Source of the DNA: Candidatus Wolframiiraptor sinensis
GTDB lineage: Archaea > Thermoproteota > Nitrososphaeria_A > Caldarchaeales > Wolframiiraptoraceae
Reading direction: 5' to 3'
DNA: 10,738 nucleotides
Assembly (NCBI GenBank): GCA_023261815.1
Contig: JALNKA010000025.1
Location: 1 to 10,738 of the forward strand
The notes beneath the pieces were generated by a model that was given only the letters and a program-made list of their open reading frames with translations, had not been told where the DNA came from and made no database searches. Positions 4,684 through 10,738 of the stretch are shown one piece after another; the stretch's first letter is position 1; every line of letters starts with the position of its first letter. A program made the translations under genes and the position numbers.

Positions 4684-7600
4684 TCACACCTCCTCCCCGA
4701 ATAGGAGCTTGGGATGGATGCACATGCTCATCATCTCCTCCAAGAGGAGGTAGAACGCGTATGGCAGGGTTACGACCGAGATGTCAGCATCCTTCCCGTG
4801 AACCGGGCATATGAAGCGCTCTTGCTTCAGGTCGTGGTAGGCCGGGAGCCCACAGATTTTGCAGAAGTATGCCGTATGCTTGTCGCTCTGCTCGAGTAGC
4901 CTGTCGAGCAGGAGGAAGCTCGCGCCGTGAGCTATCAGGCAGTCTCTCTCCATCTCCCCGAACTTGAGCCCTCCTCCCCTGCTCCGGCCCTCGGTGGGCT
5001 GTCTTGTCAACATCTGGACCCGGCCCCTGGCCCTCGCGTGAATCTTATCCCTAACGAGGTGATGGAGCTTCTGGTAGTAGACAATTCCTATGAATATCTC
5101 GGCCTCATACCTCTTCCCGGTTAAGCCGTCATACATCACCTCCTTGCCGGAGCTCTTGAATCCGAGCGCCTCTAGCTCTCTCCTGAGCTCATCTATCGGC
5201 TTGCCCATGAATGGTGTTCCATCGATGAATTCTCCCTTTAATGCTCCGACCTTTCCAGCAATGCTCTCGAGAAGCTGGCCTATAGTCATCCTGCTCGGGA
5301 AGGCGTGCGGGTTGATTATCAAGTCGGGCACTATGCCGCTCGCAGTGTAAGGCATATCTTCCTGGGGCAGGACCATCCCGACAACTCCCTTCTGCCCATG
5401 CCTTGACGCGAACTTGTCGCCTATCTCCGCGACGCAGAAAGACCTGACCTTAGCCTTGATCAGCTTATTGCCCTCCTCGTTCTTCGTTATGAATATTGTG
5501 TCGACGACGCCGGCTTCGGATGGTCTAACGGTTTCGGAGGCATCTCTCCAGACGAGCTCCCTGGCTGGCGCGCGCTGATATTCTTCTAGGAATCTGGGTG
5601 GGCTCTGGACTCCGACTATCACCATGCCGCCCGTCACATCTGCCTCGACGTACGCTAGGCCATCTGCGTCCAAAACCCTGTAAGCGTGCTCTCCCCTATA
5701 GCCCCTCACAGTCGGCTCCGGTATCCTAATAACGTCTTTCTCCCCTCCTATGTAGGTTCTCGCCTCCACCTCGTAAACCCTGTAGCTTAGAGAGAGAGCT
5801 AGCCCCCTCTCGACTGCCGACTTGTTGAGGACGACCGCGTCCTCCATGTTGTATCCCTGCCCTGTCAGGATCGCAACGACCATGTTCTGACCTATGGGCC
5901 TAGTGTACACGTCCAGAAGCTCCATCGCTTTCGTTATGACTATGGGCTTTTGGGGATAGACGAGGATGTGGGACCTGGAGTCCACTCTGAGATGATTGTT
6001 TATCGCGTATACTCCGAGCGCCTGCTTGCCCATGGCGCCCTCATAGATGTTTCTCGGAGACTGATTGTGCTCGGCATAGGGGATTATCGAGACGACAGCG
6101 CCCAGTATCGTGTATGGGCATATCTCGAGGTGGGTGTGCTCCTCAGACAGTTCCTCAGGCCGGAGCGCGACCATCGCATTCTCTTCCTCCTCCGCGTCCA
6201 AGAACTCTATGATCCCCATCGAGACCAGATCTCTGAATCTCAGCGTGCCCTCCTTCAATCCCTTAATGTGCTCTGCGGTCAGTAAAGGCCTACCATTCTC
6301 GACGATTATGAGTGGCCTTCTCACGCGGCCCTCATCAGTATTTATCCAAACCTCCGTTAAGTGTGGGTATTCGTATAGCGTGACGTTCACAAGATGACTT
6401 ATCTCGCCCCTCCGCCTCAACTCCCTCACCGATTTCACGAGCTTCGCGCCATCAGCATGATAGCCTATTAGGAGGCCGTCCACGAAGACCTTCGTTGGGT
6501 ATGTTCTTTTTCTCGTTATAGCCTCGGAGAGCGGTATGACGCCGAGCGAGTATAGCTTCTCGAGGAGCTCGCGCTTCCTCATGGGATGCGTTATCTCGGC
6601 CATGAGGGCGAGGTTCTTGACGAGGCCGCAGTTGCTTCCCTCAGGAGTCTCGGCCGGACATATCCTCCCCCAATGAGTTCCATGAAGATCTCTCGCCTCA
6701 AAGTGCGGCTGGCTCCTGCTGAGGGGAGACTGGACTCTGCGCAAATGGCTTATGGTCGCGAGGTGATTCGTCCTGTTTAGCAGCTGTGTTACCCCTACTC
6801 TTCCCCCGGGCCAGTTTCCCGTTGCCAGAGCATGCTTCACGAAGTCCGTTATTATGCCGGGCCTCACGAATGTGGAGATCTTTATCGGGTATCTGGAGGC
6901 CGCCGCCCGCTCGATCTGGTATCTTATGTCCCTCAGGAGCTTCATGAAAGCCATCCTGTAGAGCTCCATTAGGAGTGGGCCAGCGAGCTTAAGCCTCTTA
7001 TTAGCGTAATGGTCTCGATCCGTGAGCTTCCGGATCCCGATGCTGGTTTCCAAGAGCCTACCTATCATCTCGCAAAGGAAAATCGCCTTCTGGTACCTCG
7101 CTGCCTTATTCGTGCCAATATGAGGTAGGAAGACGCTATCTATGAGCTGCTCTGCGCGCTGAATCCTATATTCCTCCGCGTAGCCGAAGGCTATCCTATT
7201 ACCAATATATCTGAGGGCCTCCTGTTCCGTGTCTATGCCTGCTGCCTCCTCGAATGAGGGCTGGAGGAGATCTCGAACCTCCTCCAACCTGGATATCATA
7301 CTGAGAATCTCCCGGTCATTCGTCATCCCAAGCGCTCTGAGCAGTATTATCGCCGGTATACCCTTATAGATCCTGGAGAAGAAGACCTTGACCGGGCCGC
7401 CCGGCTTATATGTCACCTCGGTCCTCGCCTGCCTGCCGTGAGCAACCGAGATGACGATCGCGCTCAATTGCCCGCTATCTGTCTCCCTCTCGGTAACTAG
7501 GATCCTGTTTGGTGTTAGATCCTCTATCGCGACTATGACTCGTTCTGATCCATTTATTATGAAGTATCCTCCGGGATCCTTCGGATCCTCGCCTATCTCC

Positions 7601-8037
7601 ATCAGCTCCTCATCGCTCATCTTGGAGAGCGGGCAGATGTCGGACTTCACCATTATCGGGATTATGCCCACCTTAACCTTCTCCGGCTTCGGGGTAACAG
7701 GCTTGCCATCCAAGTAAAGCATCATCTCAACGTACAGCGGCGCGGCGTAGGTGAGATTTCGAAGCCTGCACTCCATGGGAGTTACATTCTCCCTAACCGT
7801 CCCATCGACCTCTTCGAAGATCGGCTTTCCGACCTCGGGATTCCTCATCTTAAGCACCAGCGTGCCATATTTCGTCTGAATCTCCAGATCTCCGAGAGAT
7901 TTTATCAGCTCGTTCAAGCCCTCCTTAATGAACCAATTATAGGATTTTAGATGATGCTGTACCAGCCCCTCATCCTCTAGGTATGCGCGAATTACGCTCC
8001 ATAAGTCCTCCTGGGTAAACTCAACTTGCTTAAGCAT
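4684..8037 (-). CDS. rpoB: DNA-directed RNA polymerase second-largest subunit Rpo2 (B, unsplit), 1117 aa
   Basis: Motifs DPGGYFIINGSERV, GRICPAETPEGSNCGLVKNLA, GYNMEDA, GDKFASRHGQKG, NPHAFPSRMTIGQ, GEMERDC, and C-terminal Zn finger CKIC...CPVH. SD GGAGGGA 6 nt upstream of the ATG. Confidence 0.98.
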   Translation of the reverse strand: MLKQVEFTQEDLWSVIRAYLEDEGLVQHHLKSYNWFIKEGLNELIKSLGDLEIQTKYGTLVLKMRNPEVGKPIFEEVDGTVRENVTPMECRLRNLTYAAPLYVEMMLYLDGKPVTPKPEKVKVGIIPIMVKSDICPLSKMSDEELMEIGEDPKDPGGYFIINGSERVIVAIEDLTPNRILVTERETDSGQLSAIVISVAHGRQARTEVTYKPGGPVKVFFSRIYKGIPAIILLRALGMTNDREILSMISRLEEVRDLLQPSFEEAAGIDTEQEALRYIGNRIAFGYAEEYRIQRAEQLIDSVFLPHIGTNKAARYQKAIFLCEMIGRLLETSIGIRKLTDRDHYANKRLKLAGPLLMELYRMAFMKLLRDIRYQIERAAASRYPIKISTFVRPGIITDFVKHALATGNWPGGRVGVTQLLNRTNHLATISHLRRVQSPLSRSQPHFEARDLHGTHWGRICPAETPEGSNCGLVKNLALMAEITHPMRKRELLEKLYSLGVIPLSEAITRKRTYPTKVFVDGLLIGYHADGAKLVKSVRELRRRGEISHLVNVTLYEYPHLTEVWINTDEGRVRRPLIIVENGRPLLTAEHIKGLKEGTLRFRDLVSMGIIEFLDAEEEENAMVALRPEELSEEHTHLEICPYTILGAVVSIIPYAEHNQSPRNIYEGAMGKQALGVYAINNHLRVDSRSHILVYPQKPIVITKAMELLDVYTRPIGQNMVVAILTGQGYNMEDAVVLNKSAVERGLALSLSYRVYEVEARTYIGGEKDVIRIPEPTVRGYRGEHAYRVLDADGLAYVEADVTGGMVIVGVQSPPRFLEEYQRAPARELVWRDASETVRPSEAGVVDTIFITKNEEGNKLIKAKVRSFCVAEIGDKFASRHGQKGVVGMVLPQEDMPYTASGIVPDLIINPHAFPSRMTIGQLLESIAGKVGALKGEFIDGTPFMGKPIDELRRELEALGFKSSGKEVMYDGLTGKRYEAEIFIGIVYYQKLHHLVRDKIHARARGRVQMLTRQPTEGRSRGGGLKFGEMERDCLIAHGASFLLLDRLLEQSDKHTAYFCKICGLPAYHDLKQERFICPVHGKDADISVVTLPYAFYLLLEEMMSMCIHPKLLFGEEV
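4687..4693 (-). promoter_or_regulatory. Shine-Dalgarno GGAGGTG for rpo1, embedded in the last rpo2 codons (E-E-V)
   Basis: Minus strand reads GAG GAG GTG TGA GCTGG ATG, a perfect archaeal SD 8 nt before the ATG at 4678. Confidence 0.85.
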
Positions 8038-8123
8038 CCAACATCCCTCCAGGCTCCAAGCTTTTCTCCATAAATATTATACTCGAGATTACCACTTCCC
8101 TAACCCCCTTTCTCCAGCCCCTG

Positions 8124-8138
8124 GCTTTAAGCTTTGCT
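8124..8138 (-). promoter_or_regulatory. Candidate BRE/TATA promoter of the RNAP operon
   Basis: Minus strand reads AGCAAAGCTTAAAGC, sharing the core AAGCTTAAA with the promoter at 10162-10176. An alternative AT box, TATAATATTTAT, lies at about 8070-8081, so the assignment is uncertain. Confidence 0.35.
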
Positions 8139-8404
8139 ATAATTTTAATCAGCCTCACATTTATTTATGACCCCCTCCTAATAACCACCATAACCGCTAA
8201 AGTTTCCCAAAAAAAGGTAAATAAAGCTATAAAACCAAACCTCCTTTTGAGGAGACCCTCTTACCCTTCATCAAAATACTTAATCTCGAAATGCTTGAGT
8301 GTTTATGACGTAATGAATACTCTGGATTCTTTAGACTATATGATATTGACAGCGTCTCCTTCTCATAAACATCTTCAGCAAGATTTTACAGTTTTCATAT
8401 TCTT

Positions 8405-8842
8405 ATGTTGGAGGAGATAGGCTTCCGTAGATTGAAAGAAAGCCTAGAACGTTTTCCTTGCAGCGAAGAAAATGAACAAATATTAACTATATCAGAGATG
8501 CTACTGATTCCGTTGAGCCTGAGAAATACTACTTACGCACGGCTGGCGATGGCGCTGGCGACATTAATCGTTGGAAACAGGATACGATGAATGAACTCGA
8601 TTTATTTGAGAATCCTTATGGAAGGAATGAATTGATGGGTAAACTCTTCATCTATTCATAGATAAAGGTGGGTAAGTTGGCTGGAATTAAGAGATCGCTA
8701 AAGAGTTCTAGATGAGCTAAAACTTTAGTAAAGAATTTGATAACACTTATCAACCGGGTTACTTAAAATTCTTTCCAAAATATCCTTAGAAATTTGAAGG
8801 AATCATGCAACTTCATAACGATTAACAATTGGAAGATGCGTG
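8405..8842 (+). pseudogene. Possible decayed gene remnant of unknown family
   Basis: The 61-aa ORF 8405-8590 overlaps a stop-free 61-codon stretch in another frame (8476-8661: ...NYIRDATDSVEPEKYYLRTAGDGAGDINRWKQDTMNELDLFENPYG...). Further protein-like fragments broken by stops follow (EFDNTYQPGYLKFFPKYP*). No family recognised. Confidence 0.25.
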
Positions 8843-9013
8843 ATGAGATAATAAATAGAGCCATGGGTATGTGAGATGTGGGCAACATGTGTTAGTAAAA
8901 GCAAGATTGACTCTGCCTCAAAGTAGGTAGAGTTAGAAGTATATTCGCGGCACATTATTCTTATTTCATCACAACATTCTAGAAAGAACGTGACCAGAGC
9001 ATAGCTTAGTAAG

Positions 9014-9029
9014 CGAAAAGGTATTATAG
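9014..9029 (+). promoter_or_regulatory. BRE + TATA promoter for the wHTH gene (probably leaderless)
   Basis: CGAAAAG-G-TATTATAG. The TATA-like box starts 29 nt before the GTG at 9051 and no SD is present, as expected for a leaderless archaeal mRNA. Confidence 0.55.
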
Positions 9030-9050
9030 TTTTGGCTTAATATATTTGAC

Positions 9051-9644
9051 GTGTACAATTCTGAAGAATTTCGGAAGGAAAACCTCAAGCTGATTAAGAT
9101 ATTGGGTGAGGGAATTCGGGGTTTAACTAACGCCGTATTTTCGCTCTGGAAGCAAAAATCAAAGTCAAAGTTTCAGCTGTTAAAGATAATGTATGATCAA
9201 CATTCGCTAGGTGTTGAATGGGTTAGAGCGAAGGAGCTTGAGAGACTTTATCGCCCACTAAGAACTCTGAAGAGGAGTGGAAGAAGTGATGTGGAAAGTT
9301 TCAGGAGGGGCGATCGCCCCCAGATCTACAGATCCTTAAATAAGTGCATAAATGAGAAACTTGTTGAGAAGCGAGAAAATAGGGGTAGAACTCAATACAG
9401 GCTCACAGAATTCGGGAAAATCATTATGGGATTATGCATTCTCTTAGAAGTACGCGAGAGGCTCGGAACCGAAGCCTTTGAAAGGATTTTTGAGGAATTT
9501 TTCATTATGTTTAGAGAGGAATTTGAGCGGCTTGCTAAGTTGCTATCTAGTTCTGGTGATGCCGAAACCAAGATTATCATACCACTTTCCTGCTTGATAT
9601 TATATCTGATTGTACCTCTCCTATTATCTTTACTTATGTGCTGA
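9051..9644 (+). CDS. Winged helix-turn-helix protein (PadR/MarR-like) with a C-terminal hydrophobic, probably transmembrane, helix; 197 aa
   Basis: H1 KFQLLKIMY, H2 VRAKELERLY, recognition helix DRPQIYRSLNKCINEKLV, wing EKRENRGRTQYRLTEFG. The last 23 aa (IIIPLSCLILYLIVPLLLSLLMC) are uncharged and hydrophobic. It is the only long ORF in the AT-rich block and has a promoter upstream. Confidence 0.75.
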   Translation: MYNSEEFRKENLKLIKILGEGIRGLTNAVFSLWKQKSKSKFQLLKIMYDQHSLGVEWVRAKELERLYRPLRTLKRSGRSDVESFRRGDRPQIYRSLNKCINEKLVEKRENRGRTQYRLTEFGKIIMGLCILLEVRERLGTEAFERIFEEFFIMFREEFERLAKLLSSSGDAETKIIIPLSCLILYLIVPLLLSLLMC

Positions 9645-10161
9645 TATCCATTTTCCTCGCCACAAACATGCTCTTATAACCATTCTGATGAGTAAATATA
9701 CTTACACCTTTACTCACATATGTCCATAGTCTCGTTAACCTGATTTTGATCATATGCGCGAAATTACAGCATTAACTTGCAAATCTACTAACCTTGCAAT
9801 GTATATGTAGGAACCGGTGCTGGTATCCACCGAGGTAGTAAAATGAGAGATCAAGCAGACACTTCAATAATTGAAGCATTTAGGTATTATGTCAAATGCT
9901 TCCAGCGAAAACAGATCTCAAATAATCTTGAAGACATAATGCTGTTATCATGCGATAATTCCACGAATATGTCCGCGGAAATCAAGATAAATTGCTTAAG
10001 TGCTCATGGGACCCGTAGAGGTTCCTTTCCAGGGGCATGAGCCCCGCCTGAGGAGAGCCCCTGGGAAATCCGCTTCCCCGGCGGAGCCGCCTCCCGGCGA
10101 CGGGAGGGGCCTGGGGCCTATGGGGCGGATTGATGCAGGAGCCTCCCCTGGGGGCCTCACG

Positions 10162-10176
10162 CGATAAGCTTAAATA
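10162..10176 (+). promoter_or_regulatory. Strong archaeal BRE/TATA promoter (CGATAAG-CTTAAATA), predicted TSS about 10197
   Basis: The clearest AT-rich box inside a ~73% GC tract. It matches a purine-rich BRE plus YTTAWATA, typical of archaeal stable-RNA promoters. The predicted +1 falls on the GG that opens a hairpin. Confidence 0.75.
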
Positions 10177-10177
10177 C

Positions 10178-10195
10178 AGTCTCACGCGTGAGACT
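10178..10195. repeat. Perfect 18-bp palindrome AGTCTCACGCGTGAGACT
   Basis: AGTCTCACG and CGTGAGACT are exact reverse complements with no spacer. It sits between the TATA box and the predicted TSS. Confidence 0.9.
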
Positions 10196-10196
10196 C

Positions 10197-10738
10197 GGCT
10201 CCCAGCTGCTGGGAGCCCGGGCGGGCGGCCGGCGGCCCATAGCCCCATCAAGCCCCTCCATGCCGGGGGGTGGAGGGGTCGAGGGGTAGACGTGCCGGCG
10301 CTCCAGGGCTCCTCAAAGCCCATCCCCGGGAGCCCGGGAGCGGGAGAGGAGAAGGGGTGGGTGAGCGAGCGCGATCGACGATCACGATCCTCCCTCCCCT
10401 GCTCGGGGAGTTCTTGATGATGCTCGGCCCTCGACGCGGCCGCGCCCGGGGAATGTTCCTGGAGCTCCCGGGCGGGGTGGGGGGAGGGGGGATGATTGCG
10501 CTGATGCCGGCTGGCTGCTCTCCGGCCATCCTGGAGGCCGGCTCAGGCCTTTCCGCCCGGGAAGGGTGGGAGGAGGGGGCCTGGGCCGGCTGGCTCCGGG
10601 GCGCCTTCCAGCCCGCGAGGGCCTCGGGGGCGACCGGCTGCAGGGCGCTATCCCGTCGGGCTCGAGGGGCGCCTCCCGCCCGCCGGCGCTGGCTTCCGGA
10701 TGTGGCTCGGCTCCGATGTGGGGGGGTCGATGTGGGGG
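10197..10738 (+). ncRNA. Large GC-rich structured RNA, truncated by the window end (pre-rRNA 5' external spacer or unclassified ncRNA)
   Basis: Promoter upstream, very high GC, no credible ORF. Helices: 10197-10205/10209-10217, 10253-10260/10271-10278, 10368-10376/10494-10502, 10387-10400/10480-10493, 10401-10413/10462-10473, 10537-10549/10578-10590. GCCC-GCGA-GGGC tetraloop at 10611-10622. G-U wobble pairs fix the + strand. Confidence 0.6.

Follow-up and report, generated by a model that had tools for sequence, protein, structure and literature searches.

A run of exceptionally GC-rich sequence that ends at a contig border, beside genes for RNA polymerase subunits, raises a simple question: what is it for, and to whom does it belong? 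The stretch analysed here (the window) is a complete contig of 10,738 nt, JALNKA010000025.1 or C3, of the thermophilic archaeon Candidatus Wolframiiraptor sinensis (assembly of 1.18 Mb, 33 contigs, 54% GC). A sequence-only reading of positions 10197-10738 had proposed a promoter-driven, highly structured RNA, either the leader of a 16S rRNA precursor or a new large non-coding RNA (ncRNA) beside the RNA polymerase operon. We arrive at a different reading, with a probability of roughly 0.55: the GC-rich sequence forms the extended, non-coding 5' arm of a mobile insertion, most likely transcribed as an element-borne leader RNA acting in cis.

The window stops inside the feature. The final 127 nt of C3 recur, letter for letter, as the opening 127 nt of a second contig, C12, this being the sole link at that contig end, and the joint is spanned by a metagenome contig (L015). 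Because of this overlap, the flagged feature is cut by the assembly break and continues into C12; joined coordinates, which run through C3 and then C12 from base 128, equal the C12 coordinate + 10611. With C12 joined, the GC-rich feature is real and larger than proposed, an island from window position 10037 to C12:668 with a length of 1243 nt (1243-1262 nt) and 74% GC. Its two parts, C3:10018-10738 (73%) and C12:1-704 (75%), are the top GC stretches genome-wide in a scan of 200-nt windows with at least 68% GC, and the rRNA genes, at 66-68%, fall below it. Joined positions 10018-11279 hold 515 G, 418 C, 164 A and 165 T, with G exceeding C on the plus strand. The island and what follows it are laid out thus:

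10037-10738, plus strand: window part of the GC-rich island, with first bases ATGAG, continuing as C12:128-668.
C12:669-1583, plus strand: open reading frame (ORF) of 304 aa, beginning 1 nt past the island end.
C12:1712-2014, minus strand: rpoH, downstream of the 304-aa gene.

Codon-position GC is flat in all 300-nt windows of the island, compared with 0.69/0.38/0.56 in rpoB, and three-base periodicity is absent; the long island ORFs give translations rich in G, R, P and A in which no family was detected, and natural variants differ by indels of 1 nt and 14 nt. These three observations rule out a protein-coding gene, and the periodicity test and genome GC scan uphold the view of a non-coding, exceptionally GC-rich sequence. 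The absence of a known RNA family was likewise borne out: no Rfam 15 match reaches the gathering threshold in the window or in C12:1-1627, and at E<=10 there are just four chance-level matches, none meaningful. A group II intron is ruled out by the lack of a match at the gathering threshold, and a variant of RNase P or signal recognition particle (SRP) RNA by the lack of an Rfam match and by the genuine RNase P RNA, which lies with the 23S gene on C28, and the genuine SRP RNA on C8.

The contig border had left room for a long 5' external transcribed spacer of a 16S gene lost at the break. GC-rich leaders do exist in this genome, over about 600 nt upstream of the 16S gene on C16, but that gene (C16:12495-13987) is the single 16S found, and the island shows no similarity to the region upstream of it. 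Extension of the contig past 10738, set beforehand as a check, follows the unique 127-nt overlap into C12 and meets the 304-aa ORF and then rpoH, not a 16S gene. Provided that C3 and C12 are joined correctly, a pre-16S leader is refuted, and we consider its chance negligible.

The extended locus reveals an insertion between two host genes. At 22 of the 23 relatives' loci, no more than about 150 nt separate rpoH from rpoB (111 nt in the closest genomes; at the 23rd, rpoB falls outside the stretch covered). The spacer of a close relative aligns to window 7949-8130 and resumes at C12:1701, so that a block of 4181 nt, from window 8131 to C12:1700, has been inserted. The block is a mobile, strain-specific insertion, with an empty site in relatives and defined boundaries, and consists in order of an AT-rich segment, the GC island, the 304-aa gene and about 120 nt beyond the gene. 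The suggestion of a host ncRNA beside the RNA polymerase operon does not survive this result, since the island sits inside DNA that is wanting from 22 of the 23 relatives' rpoH-rpoB loci. On the host side, rpoB terminates the minus-strand operon of the window at 8037, and its N-terminus is 80-97% identical to the loci of same-genus relatives. Some 35-45 nt 5' of rpoB, at 8062-8085, same-genus spacers conserve a TATA-like AT-rich patch. It may be that rpoB has its own promoter, which would account for the tolerance of an insertion between rpoH and rpoB. The features left of the island are:

4684-8037, minus strand: rpoB (RNA polymerase subunit B), an ORF of 1117 aa, the host gene left of the insertion.
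8121-8129, plus strand: left half of the interrupted target site, an exact 9-mer equal, in the same sense, to variable loop 1 of the C12 RNA described below.
8131-10036, no strand assigned: AT-rich first part of the insertion, 1.9 kb with 33-44% GC, unique in the genome.
9051-9644, plus strand: ORF of 197 aa in the AT-rich segment, with no known family in Pfam, NCBIfam or PHROG.

The gene directly downstream of the island gives the element its character. As modelled, the 304-aa protein has the TasR/IS110-recombinase fold, with a RuvC-like N-domain, a coiled coil and a Nop-like helical C-domain. The AlphaFold2 (AF2) model (pLDDT 94.7, pTM 0.89) is purely helical past residue 118, and the best 10 Foldseek matches listed against the PDB are all TasR, IS621 or ISCro4 (E 3e-6 to 3.5e-5, probability 1.00, TM 0.53-0.58). 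The first of them, 9mty, is the TasR-tigRNA-DNA complex of the TIGR-Tas paper (PMC12045711). With a profile that included distant members, E was 3e-10 for the TasR chain 9mty, 1.9e-4 for IS621 and 2.5e-4 for a TasH chain. Residues D9, D46, D97 and D100 are invariant in 31 close members; in a 36-member alignment with distant members, D100 is invariant and D9, D46 and D97 are conserved at 90% or more. S216 is invariant among close members and lies outside the conserved columns of the wider alignment, in a part that the model builds from helices only (after residue 118).

Simpler searches with this protein were silent: Pfam, NCBIfam, PHROGs and single-sequence PDB searches gave nothing, hhalign found no match between the family and a single truncated, canonical IS110 ORF of archaea, and a search of the genome contig collection gave no locus, while weak PF01548 matches appear in 4 of the 31 family members. 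The protein has 19 matches in its own genome, many at contig ends. At E<=1e-20 it occurs in none of 13 same-genus genomes and in 3 of 40 relatives, and public data hold 69 homologues, none named, from thermophilic Nitrososphaerota or Bathyarchaeia assemblies.

A structured RNA accompanies the gene:

C12:1569-1687: the 114-nt stem-loop RNA of the studied copy (L055), overlapping the stop codon of the 304-aa gene.

A model of this 3' RNA finds 17 matches in the genome (e.g. C23:17071-17184, C9:60485-60599 and C4:36539-36652), several of them solo copies with no gene, and weaker matches directly 3' of homologous ORFs at four relatives' loci (E 8e-4 to 0.17). Its stems carry compensatory changes, and a large internal loop presents two 9-nt variable strands bordered by UGRU and UGAUG. 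For 10 of 15 copies, the 80 nt on their right contain an exact 8-11-nt complement of one variable strand, versus 10 of 210 cross-pairs. In the C12 copy, loop 1 has the sequence of the left half-site, and loop 2, once reverse-complemented, that of the following 9 nt of the uninterrupted spacer in relatives; the half-sites abut in 5 of 12 same-genus spacers (L032-L034, L038 and L039), with at most 2 mismatches to the loop 1 9-mer and an exact match to loop 2. The two loops thus correspond to adjacent halves on opposite strands, and the RNA therefore addresses both strands of the split site, which by analogy follows the logic of tigRNAs and bridge RNAs (PMC12045711; Vaysset preprint). Since both loops match halves of the interrupted spacer, the protein-RNA pair marks the insertion site. 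In appearance the 3' RNA is a new relative of tigRNAs and bridge RNAs, mobile and made of a single unit. The layout of loops and spacer also resembles that of a homing endonuclease, here for an RNA-guided protein.

How does the island relate to this element? Its start (ATGAG, 10037) is constant behind three different upstream contexts, and four metagenome loci (L013-L016) are 95-98% identical to it from 10037 or 10059 onward, with other 5' flanks. The element copies on C14 and C17 share a left arm of about 305 nt upstream of their genes, and part of the island is colinear with this arm (local alignment score 30 versus 14.0 +/- 2.2, with 0 of 300 shuffles reaching 30). The first 250 nt of the island are a degenerate copy of the sister left arm, one piece of it inverted. 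For the middle 899 nt the arm offers no counterpart (103 of 300 shuffles score as well). We hold it very probable that the island belongs to the insertion, and probable that it is the element's own left arm. Three features of this part deserve separate mention:

10154-10289, plus strand: sister-arm segment, colinear with the C14/C17 left arm (BLAST E 8e-5).
10163-10195, plus strand: AT-rich 33-nt module with an 18-nt perfect palindrome, which recurs in another context.
10699-10738, plus strand: three GATGTGG motifs with spacings of 16 and 14 nt, where module number varies and the assembly breaks.

At the contig joint, L015 carries 351 + 14 extra nt, that is two more modules, each opening with a triple GATGTGG; modules measure roughly 140-210 nt and their number is variable. 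These additional modules explain the assembly break, and the module number that the joined contigs give for this genome is provisional. The palindrome module has a history of its own: metagenome contigs from X13 and X16 match 10163-10195 only, with loose ends on both sides and at a depth above that of the organism's AT-rich flank, and an X17 contig omits most of 10149-10192. The module may be an operator shared with another element. In C14 and C17, the sister-arm stretch falls within an 81-aa ORF and is coding there, and 10154-10289 retains no protein-level similarity to that ORF. The 81-aa ORF (C14:33479-33724, or L008:1250-1495) and its C17 copy belong to no Pfam family, and in one homologue from the protein database (P0024) its first residues are fused to the main protein. 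Upstream of the island, L014, L015 and L016 carry AT-rich, iteron-like sequence (e.g. L015:1399-1534) with a 43-nt unit repeated 3.2 times plus inverted copies, and sequence resembling the rpoH-rpoB target site directly before the island start.

The few sequence signals of the stretch agree with the plus strand, as the sequence-only reading had it. Only two AT-rich patches interrupt the 1243 nt, TTAAATA at 10170 and ATTTTTT at C12:609-615, and both are oriented for a plus-strand unit of about 1.03 kb. The strongest fold lies outside the window: C12:455-616 (162 nt) has a z-score of -6.1, with 0 of 200 shuffles as good, and forms a multi-branch domain with a 9-bp GC closing helix and T6 immediately after. 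The whole island folds with z -5.6 on the plus strand (30 shuffles). Plus-strand transcription would start at about 10197, 20-25 nt past the sole TATA-like patch, and would end at the sole T-run, T6 at C12:610-615, so that the RNA would measure about 1.0 kb, and with three modules about 1.4 kb. Its 3' end would be the strongly folded 150-nt domain with its 9-bp GC closing helix. Such a stable leader could terminate transcription about 55 nt before the start codon of the nuclease-like gene; termination there would keep expression of that gene low, which we predict to be the most likely role of the leader.

Two hairpins within the window also fold better than most shuffled sequences:

10363-10507, plus strand: extended hairpin with a minimum free energy (MFE) of -79.5 kcal/mol, z -2.82, 1 of 200 shuffles as good.
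10520-10600, plus strand: hairpin holding a 13-bp helix, z -2.48, 4 of 200 shuffles as good.

The individual helices first proposed are largely there: the extended hairpin of about 135 nt spans about 10363-10507, the 13-bp helix pairs 10537-10549 with 10578-10590 and includes one G-U, and the GNRA stem at 10611-10622 has 4 bp and a GCGA cap. A long-range closing helix fares less well. The 9-nt complement 10220-10228/10676-10684 exists, but it goes unused in the MFE fold, and perfect 9-bp complements are as frequent in 10197-10738 as in shuffled sequence (8 versus 4.75 +/- 3.3 expected, with 52 of 300 shuffles reaching 8), so that it provides no evidence. Similarly, the hairpin proposed at the transcription start is a perfect 9-bp stem (10197-10205/10209-10217), but it lies inside the decayed sister-arm segment, and 10197-10300 has z -1.9. 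The description 'highly structured' suits some parts and not the interval 10197-10738 overall; 10040-10160 (z -1.5) and 10600-10738 (+1.4) are, like 10197-10300, ordinary.

With respect to expression, contigs from an RNA-library run cover 10078-10399 and 10517-10738, where the depth figure reaches 75.7. They leave 9000-10077 and 10400-10516 uncovered, gaps that are not evidence of absence. At least 18 runs of 10 studies carry the island nearly unchanged, all but two of them labelled as hot-spring metagenomes.

Several observations weigh against the cis-leader reading. Interval 10197-10738 folds with z -1.67 (plus) and -0.43 (minus) against 100 dinucleotide shuffles, the minus strand of the whole island scores as well (z -4.25, 30 shuffles), and the sole 150-nt island window under about -2 on the plus strand is joined 11068-11217 (z -4.9). 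The natural variants carry 11 substitutions, of which 5 break MFE pairs, 3 are unpaired and 3 keep pairs (C>U opposite G); none of the 11 is compensatory. Substitutions 10437 and 10494 break predicted pairs of the extended hairpin, and a variant in the RNA run alters 10562-10567 by four changes, two in the predicted loop and two breaking predicted pairs. The proposed BRE/TATA (transcription factor B recognition element and TATA box) at 10162-10176 does contain TTAAATA, but its resemblance to a promoter may be accidental: the TATA-like box (10170-10176), like the palindrome (10178-10195) and the hairpin (10197-10217), is inside the decayed segment, which derives from coding sequence in the sister copies. 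The runs were compared as assembled contigs, which show neither strand, nor ends, nor true transcription. In the DNA run X13, depth is 65-128 over 10102-10275 versus about 3-5 in the AT-rich flank, so that more abundant members of the community also carry the island, and little can be read from the absence of the flank in the RNA run. Module number differs between samples, as in unconstrained repeats. The island stands next to none of the other element copies, either here or in three relatives' genomes, and the element can therefore do without it. Finally, the left half-site is 1.9 kb left of the island, which makes the AT-rich segment either cargo of the same element or the product of a second insertion event at this junction.

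Many of these points suit a rival in which the island is neutral filler, a recently expanded, GC-rich, repeat-derived spacer made by duplication or inversion of the left arm and by module gain or loss, under no selection for an RNA function and with transcription, if any, incidental. The variable module number, the decayed sister arm with its inverted piece in the first 250 nt, the substitutions that disregard predicted pairs, local fold z-scores mostly near 0 and element copies that lack the island are all as such a spacer would have them. Drift hardly suffices, however, to bring 1.2 kb to 74% GC in a genome of 54% GC whose rRNAs have 66-68%, and the 3' domain at z -6.1, the excess of G over C on the plus strand, the TATA-like patch and T6 at opposite ends, and near-identical sequence in runs of 10 studies fit neutral filler poorly. 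On balance we find it unlikely, and still a serious rival, nearly as likely as the cis-leader role.

Searches for relatives of the island returned little. BLAST against 40 relatives did not recover it; in 400 genomes from the phylum there were only matches of 20-89 nt (E 5.5e-4 or worse), species genomes and viral contigs held no exact island 24-mer, phage and plasmid collections held no relative, and the island is unique in its own genome. The metagenome scan found only the four near-identical loci. This bears on a further possibility, a new large structured RNA acting in trans, for instance by giving the TasR/IS110-like protein a scaffold or a second RNA subunit, to which L7Ae perhaps binds via K-turn-like UGAUG. 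It would agree with the whole-island z of -5.6, the position directly upstream of the gene, the island contigs in the RNA library and the enrichment of TGATG (6 occurrences versus 1.16 expected, with 2 of 1000 shuffles reaching 6), a motif that also borders the guide loops of the 3' RNA; GATG, CTGA, GTGA and GNRA-type motifs are not enriched in the island. Yet no homologue turned up for a covariation test, sister copies work without the island, and the island holds no unit like the 3' RNA, the best hit of that model scoring 12.4 bits (E 0.72), which also rules out that the island duplicates the guide RNA of the element. Against the target and the element ends, matches are no better than chance: as to bridge RNA guides, nothing in the island of at least 10 nt recurs at the empty site, the element ends or the left edge, save G/C-runs, guides of this kind being found in the 3' RNA, and a genome scan for adjacent sense and antisense island 8-mers gave 1599 matches in which signal and chance are indistinguishable. 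We consider a trans-acting RNA improbable.

The neighbouring protein invites another comparison, with a diverged TIGR-like guide array whose tandem dual-spacer stem-loops would be processed into small guides for a Tas-like partner. The island adjoins a gene for a TasR-fold protein and is a chain of hairpins with module gain and loss; published TIGR arrays are placed 5' or 3' of tas genes, or on both sides, and among stem-loop arrays the stem, the loop and the linker differ greatly (PMC12045711; 10.64898/2026.09.09.750476). An array would be expected to repeat units of two 8-12-nt spacers between box C (CNA) and box D (YG), or to show regular dual repeats. Against an array stand the motif statistics: on the plus strand, to which this search was confined, array units of the CCA..TG type and of the element's own RRT..TGATG type, as box C-spacer-box D intervals and pairs, are at shuffle level in 19 of 20 settings, and the best of the 20 motif and spacer settings is equalled by 7 of 500 shuffles. 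Nor is there a periodic repeat (self-similarity consists of one 24-nt match, and Tandem Repeats Finder (TRF) detects short G-rich repeats only); the genuine-unit model finds nothing in the island, and the second 'spacer' is an identical G-run in all three modules. The chance of such an array is slim.

The most far-reaching interpretation, and a long shot, is a two-RNA, RNA-guided homing element, in which the TasR-like nuclease would recognise the empty site through the 3' RNA and the island would be a large RNA subunit, its GC-rich RNA of ~1-1.4 kb serving as a thermostable scaffold or as a partner on the repair or donor side, possibly with L7Ae-bound K-turns.

Comparison with known systems places the element among several. 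It shares with TIGR-Tas a 304-aa neighbour of TasR fold (RuvC-like N-terminus, coiled coil, Nop-like C-terminus) and a 3' RNA that amounts to one stem-loop unit with two 9-nt spacers to both strands of one site; this RNA overlaps the 3' end of the coding sequence, as do some stem-loop units according to a preprint (10.64898/2026.09.09.750476). In contrast to TIGR-Tas, there is one unit per gene and not an array, gene and RNA behave as a mobile, multi-copy element with spacers that match the site of its own insertion or its flank, UGAUG/UGRU take the place of CCA/UG as bordering motifs, and the GC island fails the array motif tests.

With IS110/IS1111 (IS621, PDB 8WT6) the element has in common the protein fold, including the weak PF01548 matches, a structured RNA that carries guides at a non-coding end, insertion into a specific site that is cleanly empty in relatives, and many copies, some at contig ends. 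It differs in the single programmable loop seen, where IS110 has target and donor loops, and, according to the model, in having helices only past residue 118, with no apparent beta element for the catalytic serine, which the Vaysset preprint calls essential. The same preprint found no extant archaeal IS110 clade in its database that is ancestral to Nop5.

Archaeal box C/D sRNAs, which assemble with L7Ae, Nop5 and fibrillarin, offer a third parallel. Judged by their consensus motifs, the 3' RNA has C-like CUGAUGA/UGAUGC and D-like GUGAA/GUGGU at the stem bases, and these flank its two guide segments; around each guide, however, the motifs stand in another order, what the guides match is DNA of the element's own locus and not rRNA, and the island shows nothing alike except enriched TGATG. 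Size sets the island apart from known IS110 non-coding ends, which measure a few hundred nt, in contrast to an arm of 1.2 kb with 74% GC. In insertion sequences such as IS200, structured 5' leaders limit transposase expression. Like these, the island is a non-coding arm 5' of the gene, with a strong stem and a T-run about 55 nt before the start codon; unlike them, it is about ten times longer and extremely GC-rich, its module number is variable, and sister copies go without it.

Two side observations concern the rest of the genome. The 16S and 23S genes lie on different contigs, with about 600 GC-rich nt upstream of the 16S on C16, and the 23S match (C28:51900-55761, or L021:601-4462) covers 3862 nt for a model of 2987 positions, which suggests introns. 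Other islands of 65-69% GC with no Rfam match at the gathering threshold include C18:19445-21282, C24:4327-4652, C15:7039-7345 and C29:3318-3836, among others.

By itself the island is a curiosity, the most GC-rich 1.2 kb of its genome, with no relatives in the collections searched; it is the context that matters. In a thermophilic archaeon, a multi-copy element pairs a protein of TasR/IS110 fold with a single guide RNA, C/D-box-like, that matches the interrupted site. If confirmed, this would tie TasR/IS110-fold proteins to site-specific mobility and would represent a natural, thermostable and compact programmable system. Were the two-RNA homing interpretation true, TIGR-Tas-type proteins would gain a biological role, the site-specific spread of selfish DNA, and the element would be a living intermediate between bridge RNAs, tigRNAs and box C/D sRNAs.

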